From: Candidatus Woesebacteria bacterium
GTDB taxonomy: Bacteria; Patescibacteriota; Microgenomatia; UBA8517
Assembly: GCA_016700095.1 (NCBI GenBank)
Contig: CP065002.1
Location: forward strand, 1,060,145-1,124,144
DNA: 64,000 nt
Direction: 5' to 3'
In this document: in pieces, positions 16,813 through 34,949 of the stretch
Layout: each line of letters starts with the position of its first letter
How positions within the stretch are numbered: position 1 is the stretch's first letter
Translations under genes and position numbers: made by a program
Notes under the pieces: model-generated
Database searches by the model: none
The model's input: only the letters and a program-made list of their open reading frames with translations
Told to the model about the DNA's origin: nothing

Positions 16813-16883
16813 TGCCCGGTCGTCTAATGGTAGGACATGCGGCTCTGAACCGTATAATCGAGGTTCGAATCCTTGCCGGGCAG
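16813..16883 (+). tRNA. tRNA-Gln (anticodon CTG)
   Basis: TGCCCGGTCGTCTAATGGTAGGACATGCGGCTCTGAACCGTATAATCGAGGTTCGAATCCTTGCCGGGCAG. U1-A72 pair and G73 discriminator as expected for bacterial tRNA-Gln. All stems pair. Confidence 0.85.
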
Positions 16884-16926
16884 CTAAGACGGGCACCCCT
16901 AGGTGACCGTATTCTCTATTTAGCTT

Positions 16927-16951
16927 GAAGGGGCTTGCTAAAAGCCCCTTC
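16927..16951 (+). terminator. Stem-loop downstream of tRNA-Gln (gaaggggctt-gctaa-aagccccttc)
   Basis: 10-bp stem with no U tract, so it may be a processing or termination element. Confidence 0.35.
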
Positions 16952-17083
16952 AAGACGGGAAACATTCGGACCGGCAAAATACTCTTAAAATTCCAATATC
17001 AAGGCTGGATTCATATATGTCCTACTTAACCCAGAGAATAAGGATTCTAACCCCTCATTTTGCTATAATCCTTATATAACTAT

Positions 17084-17647: not shown

Positions 17648-17655
17648 AAATAGTT

Positions 17656-19050: not shown

Positions 19051-21270
19051 TTATACAGTTATAAGGTCTTTTTCTGACCTCTTCAATAGAACTGCATTTG
19101 TTGCAACGATAATTGAAGAGACACTCATCAAGAGTGCTGAAATTTCGGGTCTTAGTGAAATATTAAATGCAGGGTATAGAACACCTGCAGCAACAGGTAT
19201 AGCTAAGACGTTATAAATTGATGCCCAAAAGAGATTTTGTTTCATTTTCCTTACCGTTGCTTTTGAAAGCCTAATCGCCCTGATAACATCAGCCGGATCT
19301 GACTTCATAAGAACGACCCTTGCAGTTTCTATTGCAACATCAGTCCCCGCACCAATAGCGATTCCTATATCTGCTTGAGCAAGTGCTGGGGCATCATTCA
19401 CGCCATCTCCAACCATTGCGACAAATTTTCCTTCTTTTTGTAATTTCTTAACATAAGAAGCTTTATCCTCTGGCATTACATCCGCAAACACTCGCTTTAT
19501 TCCAAGTTTTTTCGCTACTGCAAGAGCTGTGGTTTCATTATCTCCTGTAATCATAGCTGTTTCGATACCTAGCTCATTCATCCGATCAACTGCTTTTTTG
19601 GCATTTTCTTTAATAGGGTCAGCTGCACCAACAACGGCTTTTACTTGTCCGTTCACGGCAAGAACCATGATTGTTTGTCCACTTTTTAAAAATGACTGTA
19701 TTTTAGTATCAAGTGGTGTAACATCAACATTATTTTCTCTCATGAGCTTTACCGTACCCACTAATACCTTTTTTCCTTCAATGACTGCCCGTACTCCTAA
19801 ACCTGAAAGATTCTCAAATTTTTCAATTCTGGTTGGAAGCTTAATCTTTTTACTCTTCATTTCTTCAAGAACTGCATTTGCAAGTGGATGGCTCGACTTT
19901 GCTTCTGCAGCTCCAATAAGTTGCAAAGCCTCTTTATCACTGAAGCCCTTAACACTACTCATGCTTGTAATTTTAGGCTTACCCTCTGTTAACGTTCCCG
20001 TTTTATCAAGCACGACGGCTTGAATTTTTGATACCTGCTCAAGAGTGGGAGCATCTTTAATAAGAATGTTGTGCTTTGCTCCAAGTCCTGTCCCAACTGC
20101 AACAGCAGTAGGTGTTGCAAGTCCTAATGCATCAGGACAGGCGATTACGACAGCAGATATTGCAAAAGTAAGTGCAAAGAGTAAAGGCTGTCCTGCTATA
20201 AAATACCAGACGGCAAAAGTAAGTAGACCGCTTCCTACGGCAAGAATTACCAAATAACCAGCGAATTTATCGGCGATTTTTTGTCCAGGAGCTTTGGAGT
20301 TCTGTGCTGTTTCAACCATTTTTGCTATTTGTGAAAGAGCAGTATCTTCTCCTACTTTTGTTGCTTTGAACTGAACTGACCCTGATTGATTGATAGATCC
20401 CCCAATAACCTGATCTCCACTACTTTTAGCAACAGGTATAGATTCTCCTGTAACGAGGGATTCATCAATTGCCGTTTCACCTTCAATAATTTCACCATCA
20501 ACAGGCACTTTATCACCAGGTTTTAATACTAATATATCTCCGATTTTTACCTCAGAAGTTGAAACCAACTCCTCTTTTCCATTTCTAAGGAGTCTTGCCT
20601 GGGGTGGAACTAAATTAAACAAAGCTTGGAGAGCGTCTGTCGTACCACGACGTGATTTCATCTCCATCCAATGTCCAAAGAGGACGAATGTAATAAGCAT
20701 TGCTGCTGCTTCATAGAATGTTTCATGACTCCCAAGCAGGGTGAGTATCACACTGAAACCATACGCTGCTGTTATACCCACCGCGATAAGCACAGACATT
20801 CCTAGCCGTCGGGTTTTCAATTCATAGTAAGAAGAATACAAGAATAACCAGCCACCATAAAAGAAAACCGGTGTTGTTAGCAAAAAGAGAAGCCAGGGAA
20901 TGGGAATTGGTGAGGGTAGGTTCCAATTAAACAGCATTCTACCCATTGAATATGCAAGGATAGGGATCGTTAAAATGAACGAGAAAAAGAACTTATTTCG
21001 TATATCCTCTTCCATGAGCTTTGCCATCTCACGTCCTGCTTTTCCTGTGTGATCCATACCCATTGTCATAGTCATGCTCATCTTTATTTTTTCCCAAAAG
21101 GACATATCATCAATGGGTTTCATTGTGTGCTCATGACTCATATGGCTTTCATGCATTCCATGTTTATCATTCTTTACTTCAACAAGTGCCATACCACATT
21201 TAGGACAAACACCAGGTTTGTCTTTTCTGACTTCAGGATGCATTGGACAGGAATATGTTTTGTTACTCAT
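19051..21270 (-). CDS. Heavy-metal (copper-type) P1B ATPase with an N-terminal CPxHPE...CPxCGM metal-binding domain, a His/Met-rich stretch and an atypical CPD transmembrane motif
   Basis: CPMHPEVRKDKPGVCPKCGM; HGMHESHMSHEHTM...MSMTMTMGMDH; DKTGTLT phosphorylation site; GDGVNDAPAL hinge. TM6 reads IACPDALGLATP, i.e. CPD where CPC or CPH is usual. Confidence 0.9.
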   Translation of the reverse strand: MSNKTYSCPMHPEVRKDKPGVCPKCGMALVEVKNDKHGMHESHMSHEHTMKPIDDMSFWEKIKMSMTMTMGMDHTGKAGREMAKLMEEDIRNKFFFSFILTIPILAYSMGRMLFNWNLPSPIPIPWLLFLLTTPVFFYGGWLFLYSSYYELKTRRLGMSVLIAVGITAAYGFSVILTLLGSHETFYEAAAMLITFVLFGHWMEMKSRRGTTDALQALFNLVPPQARLLRNGKEELVSTSEVKIGDILVLKPGDKVPVDGEIIEGETAIDESLVTGESIPVAKSSGDQVIGGSINQSGSVQFKATKVGEDTALSQIAKMVETAQNSKAPGQKIADKFAGYLVILAVGSGLLTFAVWYFIAGQPLLFALTFAISAVVIACPDALGLATPTAVAVGTGLGAKHNILIKDAPTLEQVSKIQAVVLDKTGTLTEGKPKITSMSSVKGFSDKEALQLIGAAEAKSSHPLANAVLEEMKSKKIKLPTRIEKFENLSGLGVRAVIEGKKVLVGTVKLMRENNVDVTPLDTKIQSFLKSGQTIMVLAVNGQVKAVVGAADPIKENAKKAVDRMNELGIETAMITGDNETTALAVAKKLGIKRVFADVMPEDKASYVKKLQKEGKFVAMVGDGVNDAPALAQADIGIAIGAGTDVAIETARVVLMKSDPADVIRAIRLSKATVRKMKQNLFWASIYNVLAIPVAAGVLYPAFNISLRPEISALLMSVSSIIVATNAVLLKRSEKDLITV

Positions 21271-21297: not shown

Positions 21298-21318
21298 TGT
21301 ACTACTTATTGTAGTACA
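21298..21318. promoter_or_regulatory. Palindromic operator TGTACTAC-TTATT-GTAGTACA (TACTAC-N5-GTAGTA) 28 nt upstream of the ATPase start
   Basis: Perfect 8-bp inverted repeat. The same core is found at 26201, 27629 and 34774. Confidence 0.55.
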
Positions 21319-22039: not shown

Positions 22040-23671
22040 TTAGATTACTTCAAACTGTGACATCATTCCCGCTTCCATATGCTCAGGTATATGACAGTGA
22101 AGCACCCAGTCACCCGGATTATCCATCTCGACAAGTAGCTCTACAGTATCACCAGTTTGGATAAGAACTGTGTCTTTCCAGACTAAATTTTGATTAGGTA
22201 CACCATTGGTATTAAGTACTAAGAAACGTTGTCCATGAACATGAATAGGGTGCTGCATTGGATGTGGTGCTTTTGGATCATTGATAAGTTTGAGTTTTAT
22301 TTTGTCACCTTTTTTAAACTGCCATTTTATATCCATATTCTCCTGCCTAGTTTCTGTATCAACAAGTTTCCAGTTAATCATTTTTGTATCAGACATCACA
22401 TTCATCTGACCCATATCATCTTCCCACTCAATCTTCTGAACCGTCCCGTCATTTAATGGCATTTCTTCATTACTCATCATTGATCCACCATGCATATTAT
22501 GCATACCTTCATTATTTTCATTTTGCTGCATCATATTCCCCATCATTGATAACGTCATATTGAGTGTTTTATCTGCAGGCTTTGTAAAGAGTGGTCGAAG
22601 GGCTGTAAGAGAGTTGATAAAATCTTGATTTACTCTTGGAACAAGAAGATAAGATGTGGTAACTGGAGTAGTAGCAACAGCTACTGTGCCCAGTGTATAC
22701 GTCTTTTCAGGTGTTTTATTAACTATCTGGAAATCTCCTGACTGTTCAAACCAGATTTCAACTATTGAGCGCTCAGATGGTCCTATTACAACTGTGTCCA
22801 CCCATTCTTCTTTTTCATATTTCCCGTTATCTGCACCTACTAATCTCATTCGAGTGTTTGGAATTGAAAAGTTAAATACTCTGGTATTGGCAGCATTCGT
22901 AAGATATAAGCGGACTCGTTCACCTTGTTTTATAGATAGTTTGTACTTGTCATCACCATTAATAAGCATGGTATTTCCATATCTTCCCATCAGGGTGTGA
23001 TTTGCTCCTGATTTACTAAAAGAGGCTATTTTGCCATTTTGAATGAGAATATCATCAAGAAACAGTGCTTCTTCCCGATCAACCTCTGCCCAATAATCTG
23101 ACTGATTTGGTGTCACAACATAATTACCATATAACCCCAGCTCTTGAGCATAGTCTTCTCGAAGATGTGGATGATACCAATATATTCCTTCATCAGGAAA
23201 CTTTATTTTATAAGTAAATGATTCACCGACTTTAATTGCTTCTTGGGTAACGTCCACTACGCCATCAAATTGATTATCAAGCCTTACTCCGTGTGAGTGG
23301 AGTGCTGTATCAACATCAGTGTCATTTTTAAAATTGAGAGTAATTTCTGAGCCTTGGTCTACTTTAATTAAAGGACCAGGAATTGAGCCATTATACGCAA
23401 GCATTTTGACTTCAGTGCCATTAATATTTTTTTTGACTATGCTTGCTGTCAAATCATAGGTATCACCATTTTTTAGCTCAACAACTCTTGATGCTTTTGC
23501 TTCAGGATAATTATTTACCTCTTTTGAATATTCTCCTGTCTTACTCGAACTTTCTCTTTGCTTCTGAGTATTTGAATACAAGTATATTCCTGCCCCCACA
23601 AGCACAATCCCAATAATAATCGCGGCTAGAACTTTTTGCATATTATTCATAACGAATTTCAATATTATCAC
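22040..23671 (-). CDS. Multicopper oxidase (CueO/PcoA-like) with a Met-rich insert
   Basis: Copper-ligand motifs WYHPHL and HCHIPEHMEAGMM. Met/His-rich segment MTLSMMGNMMQQNENNEGMHNMHGGSMM. Confidence 0.9.
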   Translation of the reverse strand: MIILKFVMNNMQKVLAAIIIGIVLVGAGIYLYSNTQKQRESSSKTGEYSKEVNNYPEAKASRVVELKNGDTYDLTASIVKKNINGTEVKMLAYNGSIPGPLIKVDQGSEITLNFKNDTDVDTALHSHGVRLDNQFDGVVDVTQEAIKVGESFTYKIKFPDEGIYWYHPHLREDYAQELGLYGNYVVTPNQSDYWAEVDREEALFLDDILIQNGKIASFSKSGANHTLMGRYGNTMLINGDDKYKLSIKQGERVRLYLTNAANTRVFNFSIPNTRMRLVGADNGKYEKEEWVDTVVIGPSERSIVEIWFEQSGDFQIVNKTPEKTYTLGTVAVATTPVTTSYLLVPRVNQDFINSLTALRPLFTKPADKTLNMTLSMMGNMMQQNENNEGMHNMHGGSMMSNEEMPLNDGTVQKIEWEDDMGQMNVMSDTKMINWKLVDTETRQENMDIKWQFKKGDKIKLKLINDPKAPHPMQHPIHVHGQRFLVLNTNGVPNQNLVWKDTVLIQTGDTVELLVEMDNPGDWVLHCHIPEHMEAGMMSQFEVI

Positions 23672-24152
23672 CCTCCTTCATCATGTAATTTTCAAAATCA
23701 GTATTTTCCTTTCCATTGACAAGCATTTTAACTGTTCCATCTTGACCGTTTTTCTTATCTAAAATTGTTGTTGAGTTAAAGTCCTCCCCCCAAATTTTAA
23801 AGAAATTGCCAAGTTTTGTATCATCTTTCGTAACTACTCCCTGCGCTTCTATATGTACCACACCATCTTTTGCATCTGTATCGTGAGTATGAATCTTTTG
23901 ATGCACTGCTCCAAGTCCAATATTAGCTGGAAGTTCTTGTTTCAGACCTTTAATAATAATCGTAAGCTTTGGATGCCAGTGCAACCCGTTGTTTGCTACT
24001 ACCTGGTCAGGAGGGACAGATGATTCGCTACCTTTTGATAAAAAGAAAACTCCACCAATTAGTATAGATATTGTTAAAAGTGCTATTCCACCAATTACTC
24101 TCTTCTCAGTTGTCATAATCCTTACTGATTTCTGCATCATAGCTATCATCAA
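23643..24152 (-). CDS. Membrane-anchored periplasmic protein with His-rich motifs (possible metal-binding; hypothetical)
   Basis: N-terminal TM helix, and HWHP and HTHDTD motifs. It overlaps the MCO start, so it is translationally coupled within the copper operon. Confidence 0.4.
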   Translation of the reverse strand: MMIAMMQKSVRIMTTEKRVIGGIALLTISILIGGVFFLSKGSESSVPPDQVVANNGLHWHPKLTIIIKGLKQELPANIGLGAVHQKIHTHDTDAKDGVVHIEAQGVVTKDDTKLGNFFKIWGEDFNSTTILDKKNGQDGTVKMLVNGKENTDFENYMMKEGDNIEIRYE

Positions 24153-24339
24153 GTTTTTTAATTATAGAAATAATCTTATCTATTGAAATTTTCTCTGGAT
24201 CAAAGGTAACCTCAGTTTGCTGCTTTGCATAGTTTGTTTTTGCTTCTTTAACCCCTTCAGTATCCTCAAGCTCACCATCTATATTCATAGCGCAGCTTGT
24301 ACAATGCATACCAAATATATTTAGTTTTACTTTTTGCAT
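24106..24339 (-). CDS. copZ: Copper chaperone, heavy-metal-associated domain
   Basis: GMHCTSCA is the MxCxxC motif of the HMA domain. The protein is 77 aa. Confidence 0.85.
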   Translation of the reverse strand: MQKVKLNIFGMHCTSCAMNIDGELEDTEGVKEAKTNYAKQQTEVTFDPEKISIDKIISIIKKLDDSYDAEISKDYDN

Positions 24340-24344
24340 ATGTT

Positions 24345-25379
24345 TTATATTACGTTAATTGTTCCTCTATACATTCCCATACTGCACATGAACGGTATTT
24401 GTGTGCCTGGTTCATTTGGTGCGGTAAAGGTGACCGTATCAGTGTTTCCATTTGTGACGATTTTTTGGATATTGTACTTCGGTAGAGTAAACGCCTGTGC
24501 ACATCCACCTCCACCATTATTTACTAACCGTAGAGTTACTTTGGAACCAGCCTTAACATTTATGTTGTTGGGATTATATCCATTGTTATCAATAGTAATT
24601 GTTGCATCAGTTACGGCAACTGCTGCCTGAGCAGTAGGAGAAAAATCTCCTTCGCAAAAGGTGAATGTGCAATAGAAATTTGACCACACATTATCGAGTG
24701 TCAGATTACTTCCAGTTAATGCTATCGCTCCATTAAGATTATATACAGCAAGAAGAATAAGTGCATACGCTGCTACTTTTAAAAACCGTTTATGCATTGC
24801 ATCCCCGAGCCTCGTTGCGAGATACCCAAGTGTAAAAAAGACTGGAGAAGTTCCCAGTGTAAAAGCAGCAAGTATTGCAGCTCCATATACTGGGTTACCG
24901 GATGCAATCGCTAACGCCATCATTGCCTGTGTCGTCCCGCAGGGAATAAACACAGTAAACGCTCCAAGCATAGCAGGTGCAAAAATGCTATTACTTTTTG
25001 ACTGGTTCCTCACGAGTTTTGTTAGAAACTTAGGTGGCTGGATAATAAAGTATCTGAATATCGGGTGTACATTTAAAAGATTCAATGCCGTCCCGATCAT
25101 AAAGACTGCAACTGCAACCGTCATTATAATTTTCGCTGTAAGTGATAACTGAACAACTGAACCAAGCCAGCCAAGCAAGAAGCCAAGAATGGTATAAGCA
25201 ATTACCTTCGCAATGAGAAAAGAAATGATAGGTAATGCGTTACCAGAATTTTTGGTTTTTTCTTTTAATTTTTCTTCTTCACGCTGCGCAATTGTTGTGG
25301 CTAGAAGACCTCCTTGCACAGCAAGGCAAGTAAGACCACCTGTAAAAAGTCCTGTTAAAAATATTGCCCACAAGTTCAT
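24345..25379 (-). CDS. Polytopic membrane protein (CcdA/DsbD_2- or TauE-like permease core) fused to a C-terminal cupredoxin-like domain
   Basis: Six or more TM helices with intramembrane Cys (GGLTCLAVQGG, FIPCGTTQ). The C-terminal roughly 100 aa carry a beta-sandwich-like pattern ending GGGGCAQAF...FMCSMGMYRGTINVI. It lies between copZ and the dsbA-like gene. Confidence 0.45.
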   Translation of the reverse strand: MNLWAIFLTGLFTGGLTCLAVQGGLLATTIAQREEEKLKEKTKNSGNALPIISFLIAKVIAYTILGFLLGWLGSVVQLSLTAKIIMTVAVAVFMIGTALNLLNVHPIFRYFIIQPPKFLTKLVRNQSKSNSIFAPAMLGAFTVFIPCGTTQAMMALAIASGNPVYGAAILAAFTLGTSPVFFTLGYLATRLGDAMHKRFLKVAAYALILLAVYNLNGAIALTGSNLTLDNVWSNFYCTFTFCEGDFSPTAQAAVAVTDATITIDNNGYNPNNINVKAGSKVTLRLVNNGGGGCAQAFTLPKYNIQKIVTNGNTDTVTFTAPNEPGTQIPFMCSMGMYRGTINVI

Positions 25380-25382
25380 AAT

Positions 25383-26183
25383 TTATTGTAATTGTTTATC
25401 TATTTCTGCTTTAAATGTTGCAAACGGCATAGCACCCACAAGCGGCGTACCAGTAATAACCCCATCAGAAGTTGATTTACCTATAAAAAATGTTGGTGTG
25501 CCAGTTGCACCTACAGCTGCAGCATCTGCCAAATCTTTATCTACCTCGGCTTTATATTTATCTGAGTCAAGACATGATTGCAAAACTGAGCCATCTAGCC
25601 CTAGATCATTCGCGATAACTGATAACTGATCAAGTGCTAGCCCTGTTCCATTTGAGGTTGTTTTGGTAAATATTGCATCATGGTATTTGAAGTATGCTTC
25701 ATCTCCTCCTTGTTCTCTTGCACACTCAGCAGCCTGTGCTTCTTTATGAGCATTTGCGTGGAAGCTTAATGGTAAATCTCGAACAACATACTTTACTTTA
25801 CCTGTATCGATGTATTCTTTTTTAATTTGTGAGAATGTCTCATCATAATATCGTTTACAGAATGGACATTCATAATCTGTAAAGTCTATTAGAGTAACCT
25901 TTGCATTTTTATCACCAAGTACAGGATCATCATCAATTGAAACTTGTTTTGGAGTGGTGTCCTCCGGAGGAGCTTGTTGAGGCGGGACTTGCTGTGCTGC
26001 ACCTTGTGCGTTTGCAGTTGCTCCTTTTGCTAAAGCCCCACCTTTTTCTAAGTACTGCATCTTTGTCCAAAGAGACCCAATTAGGAAGGATGCAACCATT
26101 AAAGCAGCTATCAACAATAGTTGTGTTTTATTCAACTTTGGAACTCGTAACGTTATGTATTTATTTTCTGTTTGTTCAGCCAT
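25383..26183 (-). CDS. DsbA-like thiol-disulfide oxidoreductase (thioredoxin fold, CPFC)
   Basis: N-terminal TM anchor. A Pro/Gln-rich linker. Active site YECPFCKRYY. Confidence 0.8.
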   Translation of the reverse strand: MAEQTENKYITLRVPKLNKTQLLLIAALMVASFLIGSLWTKMQYLEKGGALAKGATANAQGAAQQVPPQQAPPEDTTPKQVSIDDDPVLGDKNAKVTLIDFTDYECPFCKRYYDETFSQIKKEYIDTGKVKYVVRDLPLSFHANAHKEAQAAECAREQGGDEAYFKYHDAIFTKTTSNGTGLALDQLSVIANDLGLDGSVLQSCLDSDKYKAEVDKDLADAAAVGATGTPTFFIGKSTSDGVITGTPLVGAMPFATFKAEIDKQLQ

Positions 26184-26200
26184 AATATAGCTAATAACTA

Positions 26201-26219
26201 CCTACTACATATTGTAGTA
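26201..26219. promoter_or_regulatory. Palindromic operator CTACTACA-TAT-TGTAGTAG upstream of the dsbA-like operon
   Basis: Perfect 8-bp arms. It contains the TACA..TGTA core of BlaI/MecI/CopY-family operators and lies 18-36 nt upstream of the start codon. Confidence 0.55.
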
Positions 26220-26262
26220 GTATTACTTTAGGAATGTCAAGGGTAAAAAATATTAGAGGCTA

Positions 26263-27276
26263 CTAATGTGTTGGGGTATATGGTTGTGATGCGTTTGGTT
26301 GATTTACTTCAGTATTTGGTATTTCAGAATAAAACTTATTTAAACTTTTTTCACTTGCGCATGAATTCATACACGCCCCATCTGCGCACAACATCATAAC
26401 ATCATGTTCTTCGTGATGAAGCTCTTTAGCGTGTACCGGCACAACAAAGATTGTTGCAAGAATAAGTGAAGAAAATACTGTGATTAGTAGATGTTTTAAT
26501 TTAAACTGTTTTTTAACAAATGGTTTATCCACTAATGAGTAAATTCTTGGCTCTAGAGTATCATGATCGGCAATTGCAGCAACAGGCACTGACTGAACAG
26601 TTGGGAAAGCAAGTAGTTTTTTGAGGGCGGATATAAGTGCGTAATGATTACCCAGCCTTTTAACGGCATATTGGTCAGCAGCGATCTCCCGATCAATTCT
26701 GTATTTTGTGATGAGATCACCTACAAGTGGGAAGAAGGGGAAGAGCGAATGAGCGACTGAGGCAACTATCATAGTAAATGTATCCCTGTTCTCTAAGTGG
26801 TATTGTTCATGCAGAAGTACTGCCTCAACTTCTTTTACTGACAGTTGAGATAATAAACCAGTTGATATGTAAATTTTAGTAGTTCTGATTCCTAGACAAA
26901 ATGCGAAGTGTTTACTTGATTTTACTAAGCTTACCTTATCTTGCAACCCAAGGTGCATGATAAGTTTATCGATCTTTTGGTTAGCAAAGACATTACCTCC
27001 TAATTTATATTTCAGAAATTGTACTTTGATATATAAAATCAAAAATTTTATGATTGAGATCGTTAAAATAATAAAAAGGAACGCAAAAGGAATAATACTG
27101 AGATAATAGGGAATTGGAACCATATTTGCCTCTATTAGTAATGACTGACAGTAATATGTAACGTGACCTAAAAGCGGAGAAAACTTTTGAAGCGTGTAAA
27201 ATAAAAGCGTTCCCAATAAAAGAAATAACCCTGAAAATAAGGCAAGATTTTTATTTATTTTTATCATACTCGTCAA
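26263..27276 (-). CDS. BlaR1/MecR1-like M56 signal-transducing metalloprotease that lacks the penicillin-binding sensor and instead has a short His/Met/Cys-rich C-terminal tail
   Basis: Four-TM M56 core with LLHEQYHLENRD (HExxH). After a final TM helix the tail reads HAKELHHEEHDVMMLCADGACMNSCASEK. The gene overlaps the blaI-like gene by 26 nt. Confidence 0.8.
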   Translation of the reverse strand: MTSMIKINKNLALFSGLFLLLGTLLFYTLQKFSPLLGHVTYYCQSLLIEANMVPIPYYLSIIPFAFLFIILTISIIKFLILYIKVQFLKYKLGGNVFANQKIDKLIMHLGLQDKVSLVKSSKHFAFCLGIRTTKIYISTGLLSQLSVKEVEAVLLHEQYHLENRDTFTMIVASVAHSLFPFFPLVGDLITKYRIDREIAADQYAVKRLGNHYALISALKKLLAFPTVQSVPVAAIADHDTLEPRIYSLVDKPFVKKQFKLKHLLITVFSSLILATIFVVPVHAKELHHEEHDVMMLCADGACMNSCASEKSLNKFYSEIPNTEVNQPNASQPYTPTH

Positions 27277-27628
27277 GAACTTCTAAAAAATACTTTCTCT
27301 TTTTTTCCGGCAGTTTATCAATACTATCCGCAAATGAAGCGATTGCAGTATCACCAAAAGAGCTAATGAAGTTCTTTAAGAACGATTGAGCTACATTTTT
27401 AGTATATTTTCCTTTTGAAATCTTAGGAGAGTAAATATGCCCAGCAGTATTTTCTTTTCGAGTTAGGAGACCTTTATCGAAGAGTCTTTGTAGAATTGTT
27501 GCAACTGTAGTGTATGCAAGCTTTTTATCTGTCTCAAGTTTATTAAGTACATCTCGTGCTGAACAATTTTTGCACTCCCATACAATATCCATTATCTGCT
27601 GCTCAAGCTCACCAAGAGAAGGTTTCAT
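27251..27628 (-). CDS. BlaI/MecI/CopY-family winged-helix transcriptional repressor
   Basis: LGELEQQIMDIVWE...ARDVLNKL...YTTVATILQRLFDKGLL is the family signature. There is no C-terminal CxCxxxxCxC motif. Confidence 0.85.
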   Translation of the reverse strand: MKPSLGELEQQIMDIVWECKNCSARDVLNKLETDKKLAYTTVATILQRLFDKGLLTRKENTAGHIYSPKISKGKYTKNVAQSFLKNFISSFGDTAIASFADSIDKLPEKKRKYFLEVLDEYDKNK

Positions 27629-27643
27629 ACTACATATTGTAGC
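27629..27643. promoter_or_regulatory. Operator-like palindrome ACTACATATTGTAGC abutting the blaI-like start codon
   Basis: Matches TACTAC-N5-GTAGTA with one mismatch. Confidence 0.45.
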
Positions 27644-27661
27644 AGGTTAGATTAATAATCA

Positions 27662-28582
27662 CTACTTCAGATGCTTGTTATAAAAGTCCAAGGTTCTCTC
27701 CGAGATTAAATCCCACCCTAAATTCCTAAAGTTATGATCTTGTCCTTCATATTCAAAGTACTCAAGTTGCTTTCCTTCTTTTTTTAATGCGTCTGAAAGT
27801 ATAATACTTGTCTCAGGATCAACTTCTGTGTCAGATAGGCCTTGATGAAGACTTATTGGAGTTTTATTCTTTGTAAGATTACTCATGAGAGAGTTATCCG
27901 AAGAATGACCACCACCAAGTGTTGGTGCCCAGAGAACTAAAGCTTTAATTGCATCAGTAGCTTCAACAGTTCGCAATGAAGTTTCTCCACCCATACTATG
28001 CCCCCACATACCTACTCGGTTTGCATCTCCTTTTTCAATATTCTTGACCGATGCGAGTAAATTGAGTACGTCTATGGCGTATTCCGGTTGATGCCCTCCA
28101 CCTTGTCCTTCAGACTTTCCATGTCCCCGATAGTCTGATGCCAAAGTTATGTAGCCATTGTTTGCCAGTATAGTTGCCATTCCATTTGTTCCATCTCCAG
28201 TCTGAAACGTTTGAGTGTCATAGTAACCGTGATTGAGAAGAATTACAGGAAAAGGTCCGATCCCTTCGGGTATATTCATAGCTGCATAAATCTTAAGGTT
28301 ATCAGATGTGTAAGAAATGATATATGGAGTAAAGTTAGATTCATTAGGAAGCACTTCTTCAATTTTTATTTCTCCACCATTAAACTCTCTCTTTCGTAAA
28401 CCCTCAATAAAGGATCGATCCTTGTCACTATCATTTTCTAGCAATTGATCACGCTCTGTATTTATATTTTGCGAAATGCCTATTTGCTGATTTGAGACAG
28501 GGAAGCTTTGTCTTTGCCATAGAATAAATGCTCCTATTCCAAAGATTAATATAACAGCTAAAATTATTAACTTTCTATTCAT
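27662..28582 (-). CDS. Secreted alpha/beta-fold hydrolase (S9/dienelactone-hydrolase-like)
   Basis: Signal anchor at the N-terminus. Nucleophile elbow GHSMGG. Confidence 0.75.
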   Translation of the reverse strand: MNRKLIILAVILIFGIGAFILWQRQSFPVSNQQIGISQNINTERDQLLENDSDKDRSFIEGLRKREFNGGEIKIEEVLPNESNFTPYIISYTSDNLKIYAAMNIPEGIGPFPVILLNHGYYDTQTFQTGDGTNGMATILANNGYITLASDYRGHGKSEGQGGGHQPEYAIDVLNLLASVKNIEKGDANRVGMWGHSMGGETSLRTVEATDAIKALVLWAPTLGGGHSSDNSLMSNLTKNKTPISLHQGLSDTEVDPETSIILSDALKKEGKQLEYFEYEGQDHNFRNLGWDLISERTLDFYNKHLK

Positions 28583-28592
28583 AACAACTTAT

Positions 28593-29321
28593 TTAATGGC
28601 TCGACCATCTAAGGCTTTTTGTTTCTTCATTGTTATTTTGGTTTTTAACTTCATTAGTGCTTATTGAAATAAGAAACATTTTATTATTTGTCTGGTTTCT
28701 CGCATAAAGTTTTGTTCCCTCAGCAGATAGAGCAAGTTGGTGAGGTTTACTTTCGGGAGGCAGTTGTATTAAATCAACTTTATAGGTACTTGTGTTAATT
28801 TTATATATCGCGTTACCAGTTTCTGCTGAAGTATAAGCGTATTTACCATCTGGTGAAATTATCAAGTCAGTCAACCCTAACTGCATGCCTATGTTTAATC
28901 TCTTTGCAACATTATGTGTCTGAGTATCAACAACAAATATTTGATCGGAAGTCATCAATAAATGAATATGTTCGAGACTTTCCTTACTTATTGCTTGAAA
29001 CTGTTCTTCAGGTGCAGTTGCTGTTAGCCAAATTTGTTTTTTATCAGGTATCAGAGTAATATTATGAGGAGTAAATTTAATAGTAAATTCTCCTTCTTTT
29101 GCAGATAAGTCGATTGCGGTTATTTCTTTCTTGTTCTGTCTTCCCAATACTATTACTTTTCCTTCCCTTACTTTATACTCTTTTTTCTCTATATTTTGAG
29201 AATTATTTGCTTGTTGATTGGAAGAAGAGAAATTGGTCTTTCGCCACAGAATCAATCCTCCAACAGCTATAATGACTAAAAGAGCCAAAATTCCTATATT
29301 TCTTAGGTTCATAAATAACAA
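28593..29321 (-). CDS. Membrane-anchored beta-propeller repeat protein (YVTN-like)
   Basis: N-terminal TM helix. Repeated KLYA, KYAY and QIWL blade motifs. Confidence 0.5.
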   Translation of the reverse strand: MLFMNLRNIGILALLVIIAVGGLILWRKTNFSSSNQQANNSQNIEKKEYKVREGKVIVLGRQNKKEITAIDLSAKEGEFTIKFTPHNITLIPDKKQIWLTATAPEEQFQAISKESLEHIHLLMTSDQIFVVDTQTHNVAKRLNIGMQLGLTDLIISPDGKYAYTSAETGNAIYKINTSTYKVDLIQLPPESKPHQLALSAEGTKLYARNQTNNKMFLISISTNEVKNQNNNEETKSLRWSSH

Positions 29322-30227
29322 TTACCGAACTTTGTTCCATGAGTTACCACCATCTAAACTTTTATAAATACTATTTTTCTCAGTTAATGTATATAACATT
29401 TCAGGACTTTGTTTATTAAAAGCTATAAATAATGGTGTTTCATCATTAAATGTTTCGCTCAATTTTTCCCAATTTTTACCACTATCATTACTCCGAGCTA
29501 GTCCATTCATTTCAGAAAAAGATAATAACTTTTGTGAATCCTGGGGATGAATAGTCACGACCGATACAAATCCATCCAATAATGTACTCCAATCAGCTCC
29601 TTTATTTACACTGATCATCAACCCCTGTGGAGTTGCTGCATAGACTATGCTCTCATCTTTAGGATCAGCAGCAAGATTAATAATTGGATAGGTGCTAGTT
29701 GATGCAACTTCCCATGTCTTACCTTGATCTATGCTTCGCTGCAACATACCGTTATACCAACCATAAACAAGATTAGAATTTGCTGGGCTTATTGTCATTG
29801 CATGGAAATCAGCCGGACCTTGTATACCATCTGATACTTTATTCCAAGTGAACCCCCCGTCTACGGATTTTTGAAAGCCAATATTACCTCCTGTGCTAGG
29901 GTGTCCACTACTAAAAAGCACTTTAGGATCGCTCGGATGAGGGGTAAATCCCATATAGTCATCTTGAGTAGTTCCCACTCTATTTAACTCTTTATCATTG
30001 GTCAGAACGAGCAAACCATGATGAGTCGCAATATATACTCTACTTGGATCAGCAACATCAACCGCTAAACCATGTCCATGAGTTATTTCATCAACCTGAG
30101 TTATCTCTTTTGATACATTTTCAGTTTCTTTCTTTGGTGAATTATTGCCCTCCTGTCGAAATAGTACGAAAAATCCAACAATAGCTATCAAGACGAAACC
30201 TATTAAAATAATCTTATTCATTTTCAT
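29322..30227 (-). CDS. BNR/Asp-box repeat beta-propeller protein (Ycf48-like)
   Basis: Repeated SxDxGxTW-type motifs ([35 protein letters not shown]). Confidence 0.6.
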
Positions 30228-32563
30228 ATTTTATACCTTTTCAAGAGAAGTGAATTGGTTACAACTGAAACACTGCTAAAAGCCATTGCTGCACCAGCGA
30301 TTGCAGGATTAAGCATAATACCAATGAATGGGTATAGCGCTCCCGCTGCTACTGGGATTCCTACAACATTATAAAAGAAGGCCCAGAAAAGGTTCTGTTT
30401 GATTACTTTCATTGTTGTGCGAGCAAGCCTTATGGCTTTGGGTAGTTTGGAAATGTGACCGCCAAGTAGGGTAATACCAGCAGATTCGATAGCTACATCT
30501 GTTCCTGTTCCCATAGCAACTCCTACATCCGCAGTTGCCAAAGCTGGCGCATCATTTATACCATCTCCAACCATTGCTACTTTATACCCTTCGTCCTGTA
30601 GCTTCTTGACTTCATTAGCCTTATCCCCAGGGAGCACTTCAGCAATCACCCGATCGATTCCTACCTGTTTCGCAATGTACTCTGCAGTACGTCTGTTATC
30701 TCCTGTTAACATGGCAACTTTGATACCCAGCTTATGAAGGGCAGCTACCGCTTCCTGCGCATCATCTTTAATAGTATCGGCAATCGCAATATACGCAAGA
30801 ATTGTTTTTTTAGTTGCAAAAATTACTGGTGTTTTTCCTTGTGAAGTTAATTTTTTGATATGATTAGTGTCTACCGTTAATCCCAGGTCATCTGCTAGTT
30901 TAAGATTTCCGGCAAAGTAATGAGTTCCAGTAATCGTTCCTTCAAGACCTTTTCCTTCCAACGCTTTAAAATTAGAAACAGATAAGAAATTAATCCTCTC
31001 ATCTTTAGCTCTTCCTACTACTGCCTGGGCTAATGGATGTTCTGATTGTTTCTCTAATGACGCAAGCAGCTGTAATATCTTTTTCTGTGCTATATTCGAA
31101 GTCACCTTTATGTCAGTCACTGAGGGCGTTCCATTTGTTATTGTCCCTGTTTTATCCATGACAACAAAGTTAACACTCTGGAATTTTTCAAGACTTTCTG
31201 CATTTTTGATAAGAATTCCATTCTGTGCTGCTTTGCCAACTCCAACAATAACAGCAGTAGGTGTGGCAAGACCCATCGCACACGGACAGGCAATAACAAG
31301 AATACCGACAAAACTAATTAGGCCAAGTGAGAGACTTTGCGAAAAAGGCATAAATTGAGAACCTACAATAGTCCATAGAAAAAGCATGACTACTGCAAAG
31401 ACCAGAACAATCGGCACAAATATTCCTGATACTTGATCAGCTATTCTTTCTATCGGTGCTTTAGAACCCTGTGCTGACTCAACCATTTTGATAATTTGGG
31501 ATAGTACTGTCTGCCCACCAACCTGGGTTGCCCTCATCTGAAACGCACCATGTTTGTTAATTGTGGCTCCAATTACTGTGTCCCCAACAGTTTTATCTAC
31601 CGGTATGGGTTCACCAGTAATCATAGATTCATCAATTGAGGATTTACCAGAACTAATCTCTCCATCAACCGGAATTTTTTGACCTGGTTTGACAATTATG
31701 GTGTCTCCGACAACAACCTGCCCAATTGGAAGCTCTATTTCTTCTCCATCACGGACTACAACTGCAAATTTTGCCGCAAGTCCTAAGAGTTTTTCAATTG
31801 CCTCACCAGTCTTTAGTTTTGATTTTGCTTCAAGGTATTTACCTAATGTGATGAACCCGATAACAACAATGGTAACATCATAATATAGTCCTTCAGGAGC
31901 GTTTAAGAGTGACTTTATTTCAGGAAAAAGAAGCATGATACTACTATAGAAATACGCAACTAGTGTACCAATTCCGACCAATGTATCCATATTTGCAGCT
32001 CTATATTTAATAAAACGTACAACACCATTTATAAATGGTCTTCCTATCCAAAACATGACAGGAGTCGCCAGTATAAATGATGCTCTGTTGAACGCATCCA
32101 TCGAAAGAGGGAAGGTGGGAAGGAATGCCACACTATGTGCAAGAATTTCCCAAAGCATTAGAAGAAAAACCACTGCAGCAATCGGCATGACAAAAGCTGT
32201 TTTCTGTCTCATTTCTTCAAGTTCTTTAAGCTTCTGGTCTTTCGCCTGATTTTCTGAAGTAATTTGTGGATACTCGGAAGATTTGCCAACTTCAGTATCG
32301 TTGAGCGTATATCCAAGCTTACTAACTTGCTCATTCATTTGAGGCAAATCAACTTTTGTTGCGTCAAATGCTACTTCTGCCTTTTCTGTACCGAAATTAA
32401 CAGCGCACGTTGAAACACCATCGAGCTTTTCAAGTTTTCTTTTAATGATATTTGCACATGATGCGCAGTGCATTCCCTTAACCTGAAATGTTTTTGTTTC
32501 CATATTAGGGTGTTCCTCCCGACTGATTTGACCACAAACTAATACCATTTGGCATTTTGCCAA
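30224..32563 (-). CDS. copA: Cu(I)-translocating P1B-1 ATPase
   Basis: HMA domain [17 protein letters not shown]6 [27 protein letters not shown]. 779 aa. Confidence 0.95.
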
Positions 32564-33662
32564 CCTTTATTTTGGCAATCTCTTTATTAGTGGCAGTATC
32601 AATAACTGAAACATCATCACTTAAAAGATTGGTAATATATGCTCTTTTCCCATCAGGTGAAACAACGACACCATGCGGTGCAACACCCGCTTGAATATTA
32701 CTGGTAACACGCTTTTCTTGAATATCGATGACATATACATAATCGCTAGTTGGCTTGCCAAAGTAATAGCCCTGATCTGCAACATACAAATACCGACCAT
32801 CTGGTGTGGCATATGACTGTATTGCGCCTTCGGATTCAGATGGTAAACTTATATAGAAAACCTCTCCTGTGTCTGTATCATAAAATGCCATCTGCTTTGT
32901 GTCGTAAACAGAAGCGGCTATATAGTTGGTGTTAGGAATAACCGCTGTTTGTACCGCGCTTCCGGAAAGCAGGATAGTTGTTACTTCATTTGTTCTGGTA
33001 TCAACCACACCAATCCCTTTTCCGCCAATAAATGCAACATATGCTTTTGTATCATCAGTAGAAAGACGGAGTCCATGTGGTTGTGCGTCTTTTGTAAGTG
33101 GGATGGTTTTCTCAACTTTGTATGTTATTCCGCTTATTTTATATACTAGTCCTGGTTCCTGTGCGGTAGTAAAAGCAGTTTTCCCGTCCCTGGTTACAAC
33201 AATATGCGCAAGATGTTGGTCAGTTCCTATATCTATGCGTTTTACTATCGAGTCTTTTTGTGGATCAATCACAATTACTTGATCTGAAATTACTTCTTCT
33301 GTTTCATCATTTTCAGTGGAATCATTTTCTTCTTCATGTCCTCCAAGACCCATAAAGTTTGCCGTTACCCAAACACTTTTTCCATCTGGAGCTACTTGCA
33401 CATTATGCGCTGAATAACCGACTTCCATCTCTCCATTCTTATAAGTAAGATCGATCTTACCAAGAAGTGAGTTATCTTTTGTATCAATTATAGCGATTGC
33501 ACCCTCATCCTCTAGTGCTACATACAGTTTTTCTGTCGCTTGATTTTGCCTAACAGTTGACTTACTGGTGGGTACTATTCTATCTGAGAAAAAAGCCAAT
33601 CCCAACACGATTATTACGAAAACAAAGGAGGCGATTATATATATGTGTTTAGATAATTGCAT
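32505..33662 (-). CDS. YVTN-family beta-propeller repeat protein, membrane-anchored
   Basis: N-terminal TM helix. Repeated 40-residue blades ([45 protein letters not shown]). Confidence 0.6.
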
Positions 33663-33694
33663 AGCAAAAGTTATTATTTCCTACATTTCTTGAT

Positions 33695-34483
33695 TTAATT
33701 TACGACTACTACTCCTCCCGAACTTGGATTTAAGTGATCGTGGTACTCCCATGCACCTGTCTTTTTGAATATATATCGATAGACAGATCCTTTTGTGAAC
33801 GCTCTAAACTGATCAAATGTTGGAAGCTTTTCATGTCCCGGGTGATTGGCTGAGGCAACCCACATATTCATACTGCTTTCATTTTGAAACTCAACCATGC
33901 CTCCTTCATTAATTTCTATCTTATCTGGTGTAAATCCATTGTCTGTGTACTTTACAGTTACCATTCCTTCCATACTGTGTGCAGGCATATCTGATGTGTT
34001 TCCTTCAACCAGATTTCCTGGAAGGGGTTCACCAGATCTTACATACCTTGCAATCAATGAGCCTTTCTCATTAACTACCGGAATTTCAAGATCATTAAAA
34101 ACCTGATCGTTTTCCTGATCTTCATAAACCATTACAATTAATTCTTTATTCTTTATATCGACGTTGCCAAGCGGAATCTCTACATCAGTATGTGTTCCTG
34201 CTTTTAGGAAAGCACTTATCTCAACAATTTGACTCAGTGTGTCTCCTTGCATTTCACGAAGCGCAAGAAATCCATCTTTCTTAAGAGTTGCGCTTTTTAT
34301 AACTACTTTATTTGTTGGCGTTTGCGGAGCAACAACAAGATCTTGTGTGCTTCGATTGCGTTCTTGAACTTTTGTTTTTGAGTTCTCTTGAGCTTTTGTA
34401 CCGTTTTTATTAACCACAAAGTACAAAAGTCCTGATACGGTAATGGCAAAGAATAAAATAACAATAATTAAAATTCCTTTCAT
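33695..34483 (-). CDS. Membrane-anchored protein with a possible cupredoxin-like C-terminal domain (hypothetical)
   Basis: N-terminal TM helix. The C-terminal segment PDKIEINEGGMVEFQNESSMNMWVASANHPGH resembles a cupredoxin_1-type fold. Confidence 0.4.
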   Translation of the reverse strand: MKGILIIVILFFAITVSGLLYFVVNKNGTKAQENSKTKVQERNRSTQDLVVAPQTPTNKVVIKSATLKKDGFLALREMQGDTLSQIVEISAFLKAGTHTDVEIPLGNVDIKNKELIVMVYEDQENDQVFNDLEIPVVNEKGSLIARYVRSGEPLPGNLVEGNTSDMPAHSMEGMVTVKYTDNGFTPDKIEINEGGMVEFQNESSMNMWVASANHPGHEKLPTFDQFRAFTKGSVYRYIFKKTGAWEYHDHLNPSSGGVVVVN

Positions 34484-34752: not shown

Positions 34753-34773
34753 ATACCCCCCATGGAGATAATC

Positions 34774-34792
34774 TACTACATCATGTAGTAGT
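34774..34792. promoter_or_regulatory. Palindromic operator CTACTACAT-C-ATGTAGTAG 22 nt upstream of csoR
   Basis: Perfect 9-bp arms. Same TACTAC-N5-GTAGTA core as the other three sites. Confidence 0.55.
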
Positions 34793-34949
34793 ATGTCAAG
34801 AGCAGAATTCCTTCATATGAGATTTGGAAAGTAGGGGAGCTAATTATTTAAACTAAAGATACATCATTATTCTAGTTTCAAAAAGGATCTTTAATAACAC
34901 AAAAAATGCCCGATGTTATTCAGGCATTTTTGTCTTCGGATAGTAATAA

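Follow-up and report, generated by a model that had tools for sequence, protein, structure and literature searches.

Introduction

In the BlaR1/BlaI and MecR1/MecI systems of Staphylococcus aureus and Bacillus licheniformis, a membrane protease is paired with a winged-helix repressor. The protease has an M56 gluzincin core (HExxH...ExxxD), a terminal transmembrane (TM) helix followed by a C-terminal module outside the cell, with which an outer loop (EL1) communicates, and an autocleavage loop; the repressor has a phenylalanine at P1′ of its cleavage site, recognizes TACA/TGTA-type palindromes and is autoregulated (PMC9834060; PMC7253601). Each of these features has a predicted counterpart in the gene pair described here, which encodes a BlaR-type M56 protease and a BlaI-family repressor and lies in a 64,000-nt stretch (hereafter the window) of contig CP065002.1 from a Candidatus Woesebacteria bacterium (assembly GCA_016700095.1, positions 1,060,145 to 1,124,144 of the forward strand). 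Unlike BlaR1 and MecR1, the Woesebacteria protease has no penicillin-binding domain, comprises 334 amino acids as opposed to the 585 positions of the BlaR1 model, and has one TM helix fewer. Furthermore, no beta-lactamase or penicillin-binding protein (PBP; PBP2a in the known systems) is found as a target, and the operators have a spacer of 3 nt, not 2.

The lack of a beta-lactam sensor is in itself common. Only ~6% of ~15,000 M56 proteins carry a transpeptidase domain, so that ~94% have no beta-lactam sensor, and the commonest M56 architecture has a short C-terminal region without any domain, with ligands that are generally unknown (2026 CenIR paper, PMC13492132). CenIR of Clostridioides difficile and Rv1845c/Rv1846c of Mycobacterium tuberculosis share this layout with our pair, as they also combine an M56 protease that has a short domain-less C-terminal region with a BlaI-like repressor. 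However, the C-terminal regions of CenIR-type proteins are mostly predicted to be disordered, whereas the core of the ectodomain described here is conserved and predicted to be folded, and its context points to a specific ligand.

Copper-dependent proteolysis of the BlaR/BlaI type has also been characterized already, in PetR/PetP of Synechocystis (10.1101/2020.07.31.226407; PMC7896320). PetP degrades PetR only in the presence of copper, both in extracts of Synechocystis and in those of PetP-expressing E. coli (10.1101/2020.07.31.226407). PetR/PetP (Slr0240/Slr0241 of strain PCC 6803) resembles the Woesebacteria pair in several respects: PetR is a BlaI/CopY-family regulator without the CopY cysteines, its gene lies just upstream of the protease gene and overlaps it, and PetP is an M48/M56 membrane protease without a beta-lactam sensor, whose proposed ligands lie in an outer loop before a TM helix that leads into the protease domain. 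On the other hand, PetP (whose features we took from the description in the paper, not from its sequence) has 4 TM helices, essentially no C-terminal ectodomain and two methionines in a 14-residue loop, whereas the Woesebacteria M56 protein is predicted to have 3 TM helices, a 27-residue loop with His and Cys, and a conserved 56-residue His/Cys/Met tail. The swap between plastocyanin and cytochrome c6 (petE/petJ) is under the control of PetR, which acts on four genes through GACN5GTC sites and is both activator and repressor; by contrast, the regulon predicted here consists of copper detoxification genes with TACA-N3-TGTA palindromes, in a non-photosynthetic member of the Patescibacteria. In addition, PetRP does not drive a copper-homeostasis response (2023 review, PMC10141476).

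Two further families of copper regulators are relevant. CopY/CopR/TcrY repressors of Firmicutes have the same N-terminal winged-helix family, regulate a cop operon that includes CopA and CopZ-type genes, and recognize operator half-sites (KACA/TGTA) similar to those reported below (PMC7253601; PMC11672702). In CopY, however, Cu(I) is sensed directly by a C-terminal CxCx4CxC site, and no protease partner is needed. CsoR likewise derepresses copper efflux genes, and in the window its gene shares one promoter region with a BlaI-type operator, but it is a soluble four-helix bundle that binds Cu(I) directly through Cys-His-Cys, without proteolysis or a membrane component.

Since PetRP and the sensor-less majority of M56 proteins are known, neither the missing beta-lactam sensor nor copper signalling via a BlaR scaffold is new. 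The original prediction, which had regarded the pair as a BlaR1/BlaI variant not known to be characterized, therefore has to be narrowed: PetR/PetP precedes it as a copper-dependent system, while our literature search found no published description of a copper-detoxification M56/BlaI system with a His/Cys ectodomain in Patescibacteria. What is new is a conserved His/Cys ectodomain that is predicted to be folded and is composed of the EL1-equivalent loop plus the tail, together with a predicted copper-detoxification regulon that has its own operator variant, the pairing with CsoR, and the occurrence in Patescibacteria (the candidate phyla radiation, CPR). We consider it very probable that the M56/BlaI-family pair is a BlaIR-type switch that controls the surrounding copper genes. 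The best single reading of its signal is that copper is perceived directly by the M56 ectodomain, which we hold to have about an even chance of being correct.

The BlaI-family/M56 gene pair

Two overlapping genes occupy the minus strand of positions 26263-27628, with the BlaI-family gene upstream and the M56 protease gene downstream:

26263..27267, minus strand: M56 (BlaR-type) membrane metalloprotease, 334 amino acids (span includes the stop codon), identical to QQS38788.1
27251..27628, minus strand: BlaI/MecI/CopY-family winged-helix repressor, 125 amino acids, identical to QQS38789.1

Both database entries are from Candidatus Woesebacteria, match exactly, and are annotated with generic names only. 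The M56 open reading frame as listed (26263..27276, minus strand) opens at a TTG at 27276, and its translation contains HEQYH and, near its end, PVHAKELHHEEHDVMMLCADGACMNSCASEK. Because the N-termini of all homologues read MI[KR]INKN, the gene in fact starts at the ATG at 27267 and encodes 334 amino acids. With this start, the gene overlaps its BlaI-family partner by 17 nt, in agreement with the overlap that had been predicted originally.

A protein search returned 216 relatives of the M56 protein. The best 120 of these 216 are 48-100% identical to it and are mostly ~305-345 amino acids long, and all named relatives among these 120 belong to the Patescibacteria (Woesebacteria, Levybacteria). 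Residue conservation was counted over 109 aligned homologues. For synteny, one genome per species was scanned, and 36 loci were returned (designated by L numbers); a BlaI gene lies upstream of the M56 gene in all 17 close loci.

The M56 protease core

The protease core is well supported by profile searches. In Pfam, Peptidase_M56 matches the protein encoded at 26263..27267 with an E-value of 3.4e-15 (56.4 bits against a cut-off of 31), and Peptidase_M48 also matches. The two catalytic motifs are as follows:

26797..26811, minus strand: HEQYH zinc-binding/catalytic motif, residues 153-157 (codons checked), aligned with BlaR1 H201EXXH
26674..26688, minus strand: E194-x3-D198 gluzincin motif with the third zinc ligand, aligned with BlaR1 E242XXXD

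We took the BlaR1 landmarks (H201EXXH, E242XXXD, terminal helix, autocleavage loop and EL1) from the paper on its cryo-EM structure (PMC9834060). Residues H153, E154, H157, E194 and D198 are invariant across the 109 homologues. The best solved relative of a profile built from these homologues is S. aureus BlaR1 (8exs/8exp, E = 2e-8), with residues 60-271 of the M56 protein aligned to BlaR1 107-324, and BlaR1 is also the top fold found by Foldseek with an AlphaFold model. In the alignment, the BlaR1 autocleavage loop corresponds to the almost invariant AAIADxDTLEPRI, and its S283-F284 to A231-I232 of the M56 protein. Thus, the intact M56 core with a HEQYH zinc site that was originally proposed is present in the translation, as is the tail quoted with it, HAKELHHEEHDVMMLCADGACMNSCASEK.

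Nonetheless, although the protein is in the M56 family, it is not a BlaR1, since it fails the curated NCBIfam equivalog models for BlaR1/MecR1 (NF000326/NF033108) with 46.1 bits against 400 and 23 bits against 1200; the BlaR1 match spans only model positions 111-327 of 585. As had been predicted, no transpeptidase or penicillin-binding domain (PF00905 or other) was found by Pfam after the last TM helix, where 56 residues remain. A canonical beta-lactam role was rejected on three grounds: the sensor domain is missing, the equivalog models failed, and operators are found only at copper-handling operons.

Because M48/HtpX models match the protein as well, we considered whether it might not be a sensor at all, and instead provide constitutive turnover of the repressor or HtpX-like membrane quality control, with the tail as a folding or anchoring element. 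We regard this as very improbable, since the gene overlap, the autoregulatory operators and the strict pairing with BlaI in every close-family locus are hallmarks of BlaIR systems, and since the counterpart of the autocleavage loop, which is autoinhibitory, is conserved.

The core contains one additional residue of note. C124 (window 26896-26898, in the FAFCLG strand) is an invariant cytoplasmic cysteine that aligns with the substrate-binding edge strand of BlaR1. The position is Thr in tail-less Paenibacillus relatives, and some other CPR and Chloroflexota relatives have C124 plus a second cysteine (RPK[IV]C). It is possible that C124 forms an additional metal or redox site on the cytoplasmic side.

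Topology and predicted fold of the ectodomain

The regions on the far side of the membrane from the protease domain, and the helix that leads to the tail, are as follows:

27109..27189, minus strand: outer loop 1, residues 27-53, with H35-x2-Y38-Y39-C40, between TM1 and TM2; BlaR1 EL1 counterpart
26434..26499, minus strand: last TM helix, residues 257-278 (hydropathy 2.54, 6 K/R before it), corresponding to the BlaR1 terminal helix
26359..26433, minus strand: core of the tail ectodomain, residues 279-303, with H279, E282, H284, H285, H288, D289, M291, M292, C294, C299, M300 and C303
26266..26358, minus strand: distal tail, residues 304-334, with a helix (NLNKLYSEIP), a variable spacer and a C-terminal S-x-x-Y-T-P-x-x

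Hydropathy places TM1 at residues 8-26, TM2 at ~54-80 and TM3 at 260-278. A weaker hydrophobic segment at 164-182 corresponds to a segment that is a re-entrant helix in BlaR1. The charge bias fits this arrangement, as 5 and 6 K/R flank the protease domain, while the tail has 3 K/R compared with 8 D/E. The AlphaFold model (mean pLDDT 81.9, pTM 0.76) has helices at 6-32, 54-90 and 257-275; loop 1 forms a beta-hairpin (36-52), and the tail forms a hairpin (279-294) followed by two short helices, with residues 319-334 disordered (pLDDT <50). Thus, both hydropathy and AlphaFold predict three TM helices, rather than a BlaR1-like set of four with the N-terminus outside, and the Pfam and BlaR1 alignments begin at the helix equivalent to BlaR1 TM3.

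As in BlaR1, the protease domain can only reach its DNA-binding substrate from the cytoplasmic side, so that loop 1 and the tail should be outside. Hydropathy and charge, the BlaR1 alignment and AlphaFold agree in predicting an extracytoplasmic tail, as was originally proposed, and not a cytoplasmic one. Because the last TM helix aligns with the terminal TM helix of BlaR1, the 56-residue tail sits at the position of the beta-lactam sensor. Similarly, since the first TM helix is missing relative to BlaR1 and PetP, loop 1 is the counterpart of the EL1 loop. In BlaR1, EL1 reaches into the sensor domain and is expelled upon acylation (PMC9834060).

Conservation of the ectodomain

The tail core is strongly enriched in potential ligands: 10 of the 25 residues at 279-303 are His, Cys or Met, compared with 5.2% of all its other residues (binomial P = 2e-7), in accordance with the proposal of a final TM helix followed by a His/Met/Cys-rich tail. 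The same kind of residue is conserved in both outer regions. In loop 1, H35 is found in 108/109 homologues, and Y38 and C40 in 109/109. In the tail, the counts out of 109 are 107 for E282, 105 for H284, 96 for H285, 72 for H288, 105 for D289, 91 for M292 and 109 for C303. C294 and C299 are both Cys in 98/109, both replaced in 10/109 and both gapped in 1/109. By majority frequency, the loop-1 core (0.80) and the tail core (0.71) are comparable to the protease core (0.78) and above the TM helices (0.56-0.62), and the candidate ligand residues are individually 88-100% conserved. The idea of an extracytoplasmic, metal-binding tail as the copper sensor was therefore borne out insofar as the tail is predicted to be outside and is conserved among the homologues; however, the tail does not stand alone, because loop 1 has an equally conserved His/Cys motif, H35-x4-C40.

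The variation among the homologues is also informative. A subclade of ~305-308 amino acids without C294/C299 and the distal tail retains ELHHDHYD, C40 and C303, and is still found in a copper island. Thus, the His cluster is the part that is retained even where one Cys pair is gone. The cysteines vary in two pairs, C40/C303 and C294/C299, and therefore disulfides and two-thiol Cu(I) sites are both possible; Cu(I) favours two-thiol coordination. A structural zinc site with four cysteines was judged unlikely, as C294/C299 were lost together in ten sequences while C40/C303 are invariant.

This pairwise variation is also what would be expected if the ectodomain senses thiol-oxidative envelope stress, in which case copper or oxidants would form or scramble disulfides among C40, C294, C299 and C303 and so activate the protease. 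Such thiol-oxidation sensing is the main rival to direct copper sensing, although we consider it unlikely: the best conserved non-Cys residues of the ectodomain (H35, H284, H285, E282, D289 and M292) are classic metal ligands, and the subclade without C294/C299 keeps the His cluster and its place in a copper island. The gene context, which bears on this explanation in the other direction, is described below.

Beyond this family, the tail does not seem to be reused. When the 58-residue tail was used as a phmmer query against 1.84 billion representatives, the matches were limited to fragments from the same family and one spurious repeat protein, and we therefore regard the tail module as private to this M56 family. 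Most homologues end with [NS]-[AS]-S-x-x-[YF]-[TS]-P-x-x after a variable spacer (window 26266-26300), a stretch that is disordered in the AlphaFold model. This conserved C-terminal end could be a docking or processing signal.

The partner repressor

The repressor belongs to the BlaI/MecI/CopY family. Penicillinase_R (Pfam) matches it with an E-value of 1.3e-26 (93.7 bits against 22.6) over 113 of 115 model positions, and its matches in the PDB are BlaI, MecI and M. tuberculosis BlaI, even though it falls below the NCBIfam cut-offs for the BlaI and MecI equivalogs. The CopY/TcrY model (TIGR02698) reaches only 51.5 bits against a cut-off of 121.95 and matches at positions 4-86 of 130, i.e. the DNA-binding half only. 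The C-terminal CxCx4CxC (or CxC) site of CopY is absent from the repressor, and an alignment of the partner repressors has no conserved Cys pair. The only cysteines are C19 and C22, both in the N-terminal domain, of which C19 is variable and C22 is present in most close relatives. We therefore rejected, on sequence, direct copper sensing of the CopY type, as the repressor lacks the Cys motif and fails the TIGR02698 cut-off.

By contrast, it is plausible, judging from alignments, that the repressor is a substrate of the M56 protease. A HMMER alignment to S. aureus BlaI (1sd4/1xsd) identifies a position equivalent to the BlaI scissile bond:

27332..27337, minus strand: S98-F99 of the repressor, at the position of the BlaI N101-F102 scissile bond

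The motif TA[IV]ASFA around S98-F99 is conserved in the partner repressors of 17 close-family loci (L001-L018). A phenylalanine at P1′ is almost invariant in BlaI (PMC9834060).

Operators and promoters

A pattern CTACA-N3-TGTAG with at most one mismatch occurs at four sites in the 64 kb (at 21302, 26205, 27630 and 34776). The extended form is TACTACA-N3-TGTAGTA, and the sites are palindromes of 15-21 bp:

27629..27643: operator 1, ACTACATATTGTAGC, which abuts the blaI start codon; a site is found at the same position in 14/17 related loci
26202..26220: operator 2, CTACTACATATTGTAGTAG, between the M56 and DsbA-like genes; a site is found at the same position in 15/16 loci
21298..21318: operator 3, TGTACTACTTATTGTAGTACA, 28 nt upstream of the gene for an HMBD-type copper ATPase; one mismatch
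34773..34791: operator 4, CTACTACATCATGTAGTAG, inside the promoter of the csoR-copA operon

All four lie in promoter regions of minus-strand operons within a 16-kb copper island, and none lies elsewhere in the 64 kb. The number of sites is only mildly unusual by itself, as 4 of 100 shuffled versions of the window reached four sites. Because the count is weak, our argument relies instead on where the sites lie and on how well they are conserved among the loci. In related loci (36-78% protein identity), a site is found at most 100 nt upstream of blaI in 14/17 cases and at most 200 nt downstream of the M56 gene in 15/16. These two positions account for 29 of 45 sites (about two thirds) in 261 kb, within about 2% of the sequence.

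The sites also coincide with promoters. Both of the top-scoring sigma-70-like matches in the 16.6-kb region overlap operators: the best match, TTGACA-18-TACAAT at 26240..26211, has a -10 hexamer that forms part of operator 2, and TTGACA-18-TAGATT at 34799..34770 contains operator 4. In operator 1, read on the minus (coding) strand, TACAAT is followed 7 nt on by the ATG of blaI (GCTACAATATGTAGTATG, window 27628-27645), and the same arrangement is found in most related loci. This sequence arrangement suggests a leaderless blaI-M56 mRNA with its -10 element inside the operator.

The half-sites are of the BlaI/MecI/CopY type, and the spacer is 3 nt at all four sites and at the orthologous sites. 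The cop box, KACANNTGTA, has a spacer of 2 nt (PMC7253601).

The copper island

The operons behind operators 2, 3 and 4 encode the following proteins:

25383..26183, minus strand: membrane-anchored DsbA-like thioredoxin (CPFC; Thioredoxin_4/DSBA in Pfam), directly downstream of the M56 gene
22040..25379, minus strand: rest of the operon behind operator 2 (Pfam, synteny), consisting of the next four genes
24345-25379, minus strand: DsbD_2-cupredoxin fusion (Pfam)
24106-24339, minus strand: HMA chaperone (Pfam)
23643-24152, minus strand: 169-amino-acid protein
22040-23671, minus strand: multicopper oxidase with a Met-rich insert (Pfam)
19051..21270, minus strand: P1B ATPase with HMBD and a His/Met-rich N-terminus, behind operator 3; passes the copper model TIGR01511
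34480..34752, minus strand: CsoR-family Cu(I) repressor, 90 amino acids, C36/H61/C65; first gene of the copA operon
27662..34483, minus strand: genes after csoR behind operator 4, encoding a DUF7282-cupredoxin, a beta-propeller, CopA, a BNR protein, a beta-propeller and an alpha/beta hydrolase
30224-32563, minus strand: CopA with an HMA domain and a CPC motif (Pfam; NCBIfam copper subfamily model passed)

The setting that was originally described, copper-resistance genes with BlaI-type operators, thus consists of four palindromes and of copper genes identified by Pfam and NCBIfam.

Similar genes surround the pair in other genomes, and M56 proteins with similar tails beside copper genes, which the original prediction had suggested looking for, were found in 17 related loci. 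The order blaI-M56-dsbA-like is found in nearly every one of the loci L001-L018, and CopA or another ATPase, DsbD-cupredoxin, HMA and multicopper oxidase genes lie around the pair. A copper-gene neighbourhood is also present at two more distant CPR loci (L020, L034), with DsbD-cupredoxin, HMA and CopA genes, and at L037/L039. This recurrence bears on the possibility that the pair senses another cue, such as Zn, Ag, Cd, Ni, a peptide or the cell wall, with the copper specificity of the island coming from CsoR only. The ligands of most non-canonical BlaR ectodomains are unknown (PMC13492132), sites composed of His, Asp, Glu and Cys are not specific for copper, and the operator count in the window is only modestly above chance. 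However, every operator-bearing operon encodes copper-handling proteins (two ATPases that match copper models, a multicopper oxidase, HMA and cupredoxins), the association with copper genes recurs in all 17 close loci and two distant ones, and the window contains no beta-lactamase, PBP or other target with an operator. We therefore think that a cue other than copper is improbable.

The thiol proteins in these operons return us to oxidative stress. If the ectodomain responded to thiol damage, the DsbA-like and DsbD-like thiol-repair proteins would be induced first and the copper exporters would follow. We take this to be fairly unlikely as well, but it would explain why a DsbA-like gene with its own operator lies directly after the M56 gene in 16/18 loci (L001-L018) and is followed by a DsbD_2 protein. 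The DsbA/DsbD-like Scs proteins of Salmonella protect against copper, which can also be counted in favour of thiol sensing. Furthermore, the more distant CPR relatives (Doudnabacteria L020, and L025, L026, L029 and L034) have different tails with 3-4 cysteines plus 1-2 cysteines in loop 1; these Cys-rich tails are unrelated, and the ectodomains have 4 or 6 cysteines. One of these, L026, has the same C-x4-C-x3-C spacing, lacks the His cluster and adjoins only a DsbA-like gene. A joint loss of C294/C299 and of the neighbouring DsbA-like gene would have spoken for disulfides; the subclade without these cysteines has a resistance-nodulation-division (RND) pump inserted after the M56 gene, with a DsbA-like gene still downstream.

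M56/BlaI pairs without a beta-lactam sensor were found both in these CPR loci (L020, L025, L026, L029, L034) and in Paenibacillus (L024, L027, L028, L030-L033, L036). The Paenibacillus proteins are the nearest relatives outside the CPR; they comprise 282 amino acids, lack anything beyond the last TM helix and are not encoded near copper genes, and they retain a conserved cysteine in the outer loop (FDMCNSW).

CsoR is the second regulator of the island. Its gene matches Trns_repr_metal (Pfam) with an E-value of 3e-23 (82.4 bits against 22.8), the Cu(I) triad C36/H61/C65 can be read from the translation and is conserved, and csoR is present in 10 related loci. In seven related loci, a box, ATATCCCC-N4-GGGGGATAT, lies just upstream of csoR. 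The corresponding box in the window, TATCTCCATGGGGGGTATA, is degenerate, has another spacing and directly follows the BlaI-type operator (upstream region 34753-34800). Searching the rest of the window for the consensus pattern of the related loci yielded only a match at chance level. By sequence, the csoR-copA promoter thus appears to integrate two inputs, with copper control shared by two regulators. Since CsoR covers the sensing of Cu(I) in the cytoplasm, a distinct role is left for the M56 protein, which would most simply be sensing outside the membrane.

In principle, Cu(I) could instead be sensed in the cytoplasm, either by the repressor, which would become a better substrate, or by the protease domain, for example through C124, with the ectodomain being only structural. 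C124 is invariant in the 109 homologues and is Thr in the tail-less Paenibacillus proteins, C22 of the repressor is present in most close homologues, and the PetRP authors left it possible that copper acts through PetR (10.1101/2020.07.31.226407). However, neither a conserved Cys pair nor a His cluster is found in the repressor, whose C19 is variable; a second cytoplasmic Cu(I) sensor would be redundant with CsoR; and a purely structural role leaves it unexplained that the ectodomain, rich in ligands, is conserved to the level of the catalytic core. Cytoplasmic sensing by the pair is therefore decidedly improbable.

Several other observations concern the island and its relatives. The ATPase encoded at 19051-21270 has CPD at the transmembrane metal site, with an HMBD zinc-ribbon-like N-terminus and a His/Met-rich stretch; the usual motif of P1B copper ATPases at this site is CPC or CPH. 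Two cupredoxin fusions, DsbD_2 with a C-terminal cupredoxin-like domain (24345-25379) and DUF7282 with a weak cupredoxin-like match (33695-34483, minus strand), are both conserved across related islands. In the subclade without C294/C299, a gene for a membrane-fusion protein directly follows the M56 gene (L037 8924-13823; L039 8995-10371), and in L037 this gene and then an RND (ACR_tran) pump precede the DsbA-like gene. RND pumps are unexpected in bacteria that are thought to have a single membrane. The 1.61-Mb chromosome OZ246394.1 carries two full csoR...copA...blaI-M56-dsbA-dsbD-HMA islands ~250 kb apart (L006 and L007), whose M56 proteins are 54% and 55% identical to that of the window. 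The records of L001-L003, L006, L007, L009, L011, L016 and others are titled ‘uncultured Gammaproteobacteria bacterium’; as the M56 proteins are up to 78% identical, the synteny is the same and the genomes are 0.8-1.6 Mb, these titles are probably automatic mislabels.

At its edges (16813-18993, 35877-39856), the island is flanked by a tRNA-Gln and a serine recombinase on one side, and on the other by a terminase-like gene, an HTH gene and two DNA methylases, including a ParB-methylase fusion. It may therefore be part of a mobile or prophage-derived region, although no att-type direct repeat of the tRNA-Gln end of at least 14 nt was found. The window also contains a DUF3800-IX sRNA motif (55837-55908, minus strand; Rfam, 56.9 bits, above the gathering score), which is unrelated to the M56/BlaI pair.

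A candidate mechanism for copper signalling

The observations can be combined into a candidate mechanism. In the resting state, dimers of the BlaI-like repressor would occupy the 15-21 bp palindromes over the -10 regions of four promoters, and so repress their own operon, the operon for the DsbA-like, DsbD-cupredoxin, HMA and multicopper oxidase proteins, the HMBD-ATPase gene and the csoR-copA operon. The M56 protein would be arranged with its N-terminus inside, followed by TM1, the 27-residue outer loop, TM2, the cytoplasmic gluzincin domain, TM3 and the 56-residue outer tail. The hairpins of loop 1 and tail would pack into a small ectodomain that displays H35, E282, H284, H285, H288, D289 and M292 along with the Cys pairs C40/C303 and C294/C299.

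Copper could then be perceived in either of two ways. The cluster of His, Met and carboxylates might bind copper, with the cysteines acting as disulfide staples, or Cu(I) might bridge the thiol pairs, with C40-C303 tying loop 1 to the tail. In both cases, copper would change the contact between loop and tail, much as acylation by a beta-lactam changes the contact of EL1 with the sensor in BlaR1. TM2 and TM3 would relay this change to the protease domain, where the AAIADxDTLEPRI loop would leave the active site. The repressor would be cut at or near S98-F99 and lose its dimerization, and the operators would be released. CsoR would act separately as the cytoplasmic sensor of Cu(I), placing the copA operon under additional control. 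The more specific proposal, that the loop-1 hairpin and His/Cys tail are a dedicated extracellular copper receptor which has replaced the penicillin-binding domain, and which switches on repressor cleavage by the retained logic of EL1 and sensor, is one that we put forward tentatively, as somewhat less than an even bet.

A number of points weigh against copper sensing by the ectodomain as just described. The P1 residue at the putative scissile bond is Ser, not Asn. Copper binding, repressor cleavage and DNA binding by the pair are inferred, as is the contact between loop 1 and tail, where the ectodomain pLDDT is only 64-78. The pattern of cysteines in the sequences does not tell metal ligands from structural disulfides, and clusters of His, Asp and Glu bind Zn or Ni too. 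The presence of CsoR means that copper induction of copA does not by itself need the M56 pair. Finally, relatives such as L026, which lie beside only a DsbA-like gene, hint that the ancestral signal was perhaps thiol stress and not a metal.

Significance

Known bacterial copper sensors include CueR, CsoR and CopY, which are one-component regulators in the cytoplasm, the two-component kinases CusS and CopS, the ECF sigma factor CorE and the cyanobacterial protease pair PetRP, which does not control copper detoxification. In the family described here, a small, conserved ectodomain rich in candidate ligands belongs to a BlaR-type protease, the repressor lacks what CopY uses to sense copper, and the predicted regulon is compact, with clean operators. 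How BlaR proteins without a beta-lactam sensor perceive their signals, a question that PetP shares with most of the ~15,000 M56 proteins, could thus be tested with a few point mutants.

If copper is sensed as we propose, the ectodomain would be the first non-beta-lactam BlaR ectodomain with a ligand that can be named. The pair would provide a one-protein transmembrane route from copper to detoxification genes beside CsoR, such that copper outside and inside the cell is reported separately, and would show how the two are wired into the same promoters. If thiol oxidation is sensed instead, the family would represent a protease-based sensor of copper-induced thiol damage. For the Patescibacteria, whose regulatory repertoires are very small, a copper-responsive pair would be one of the few signalling pathways that can be assigned.

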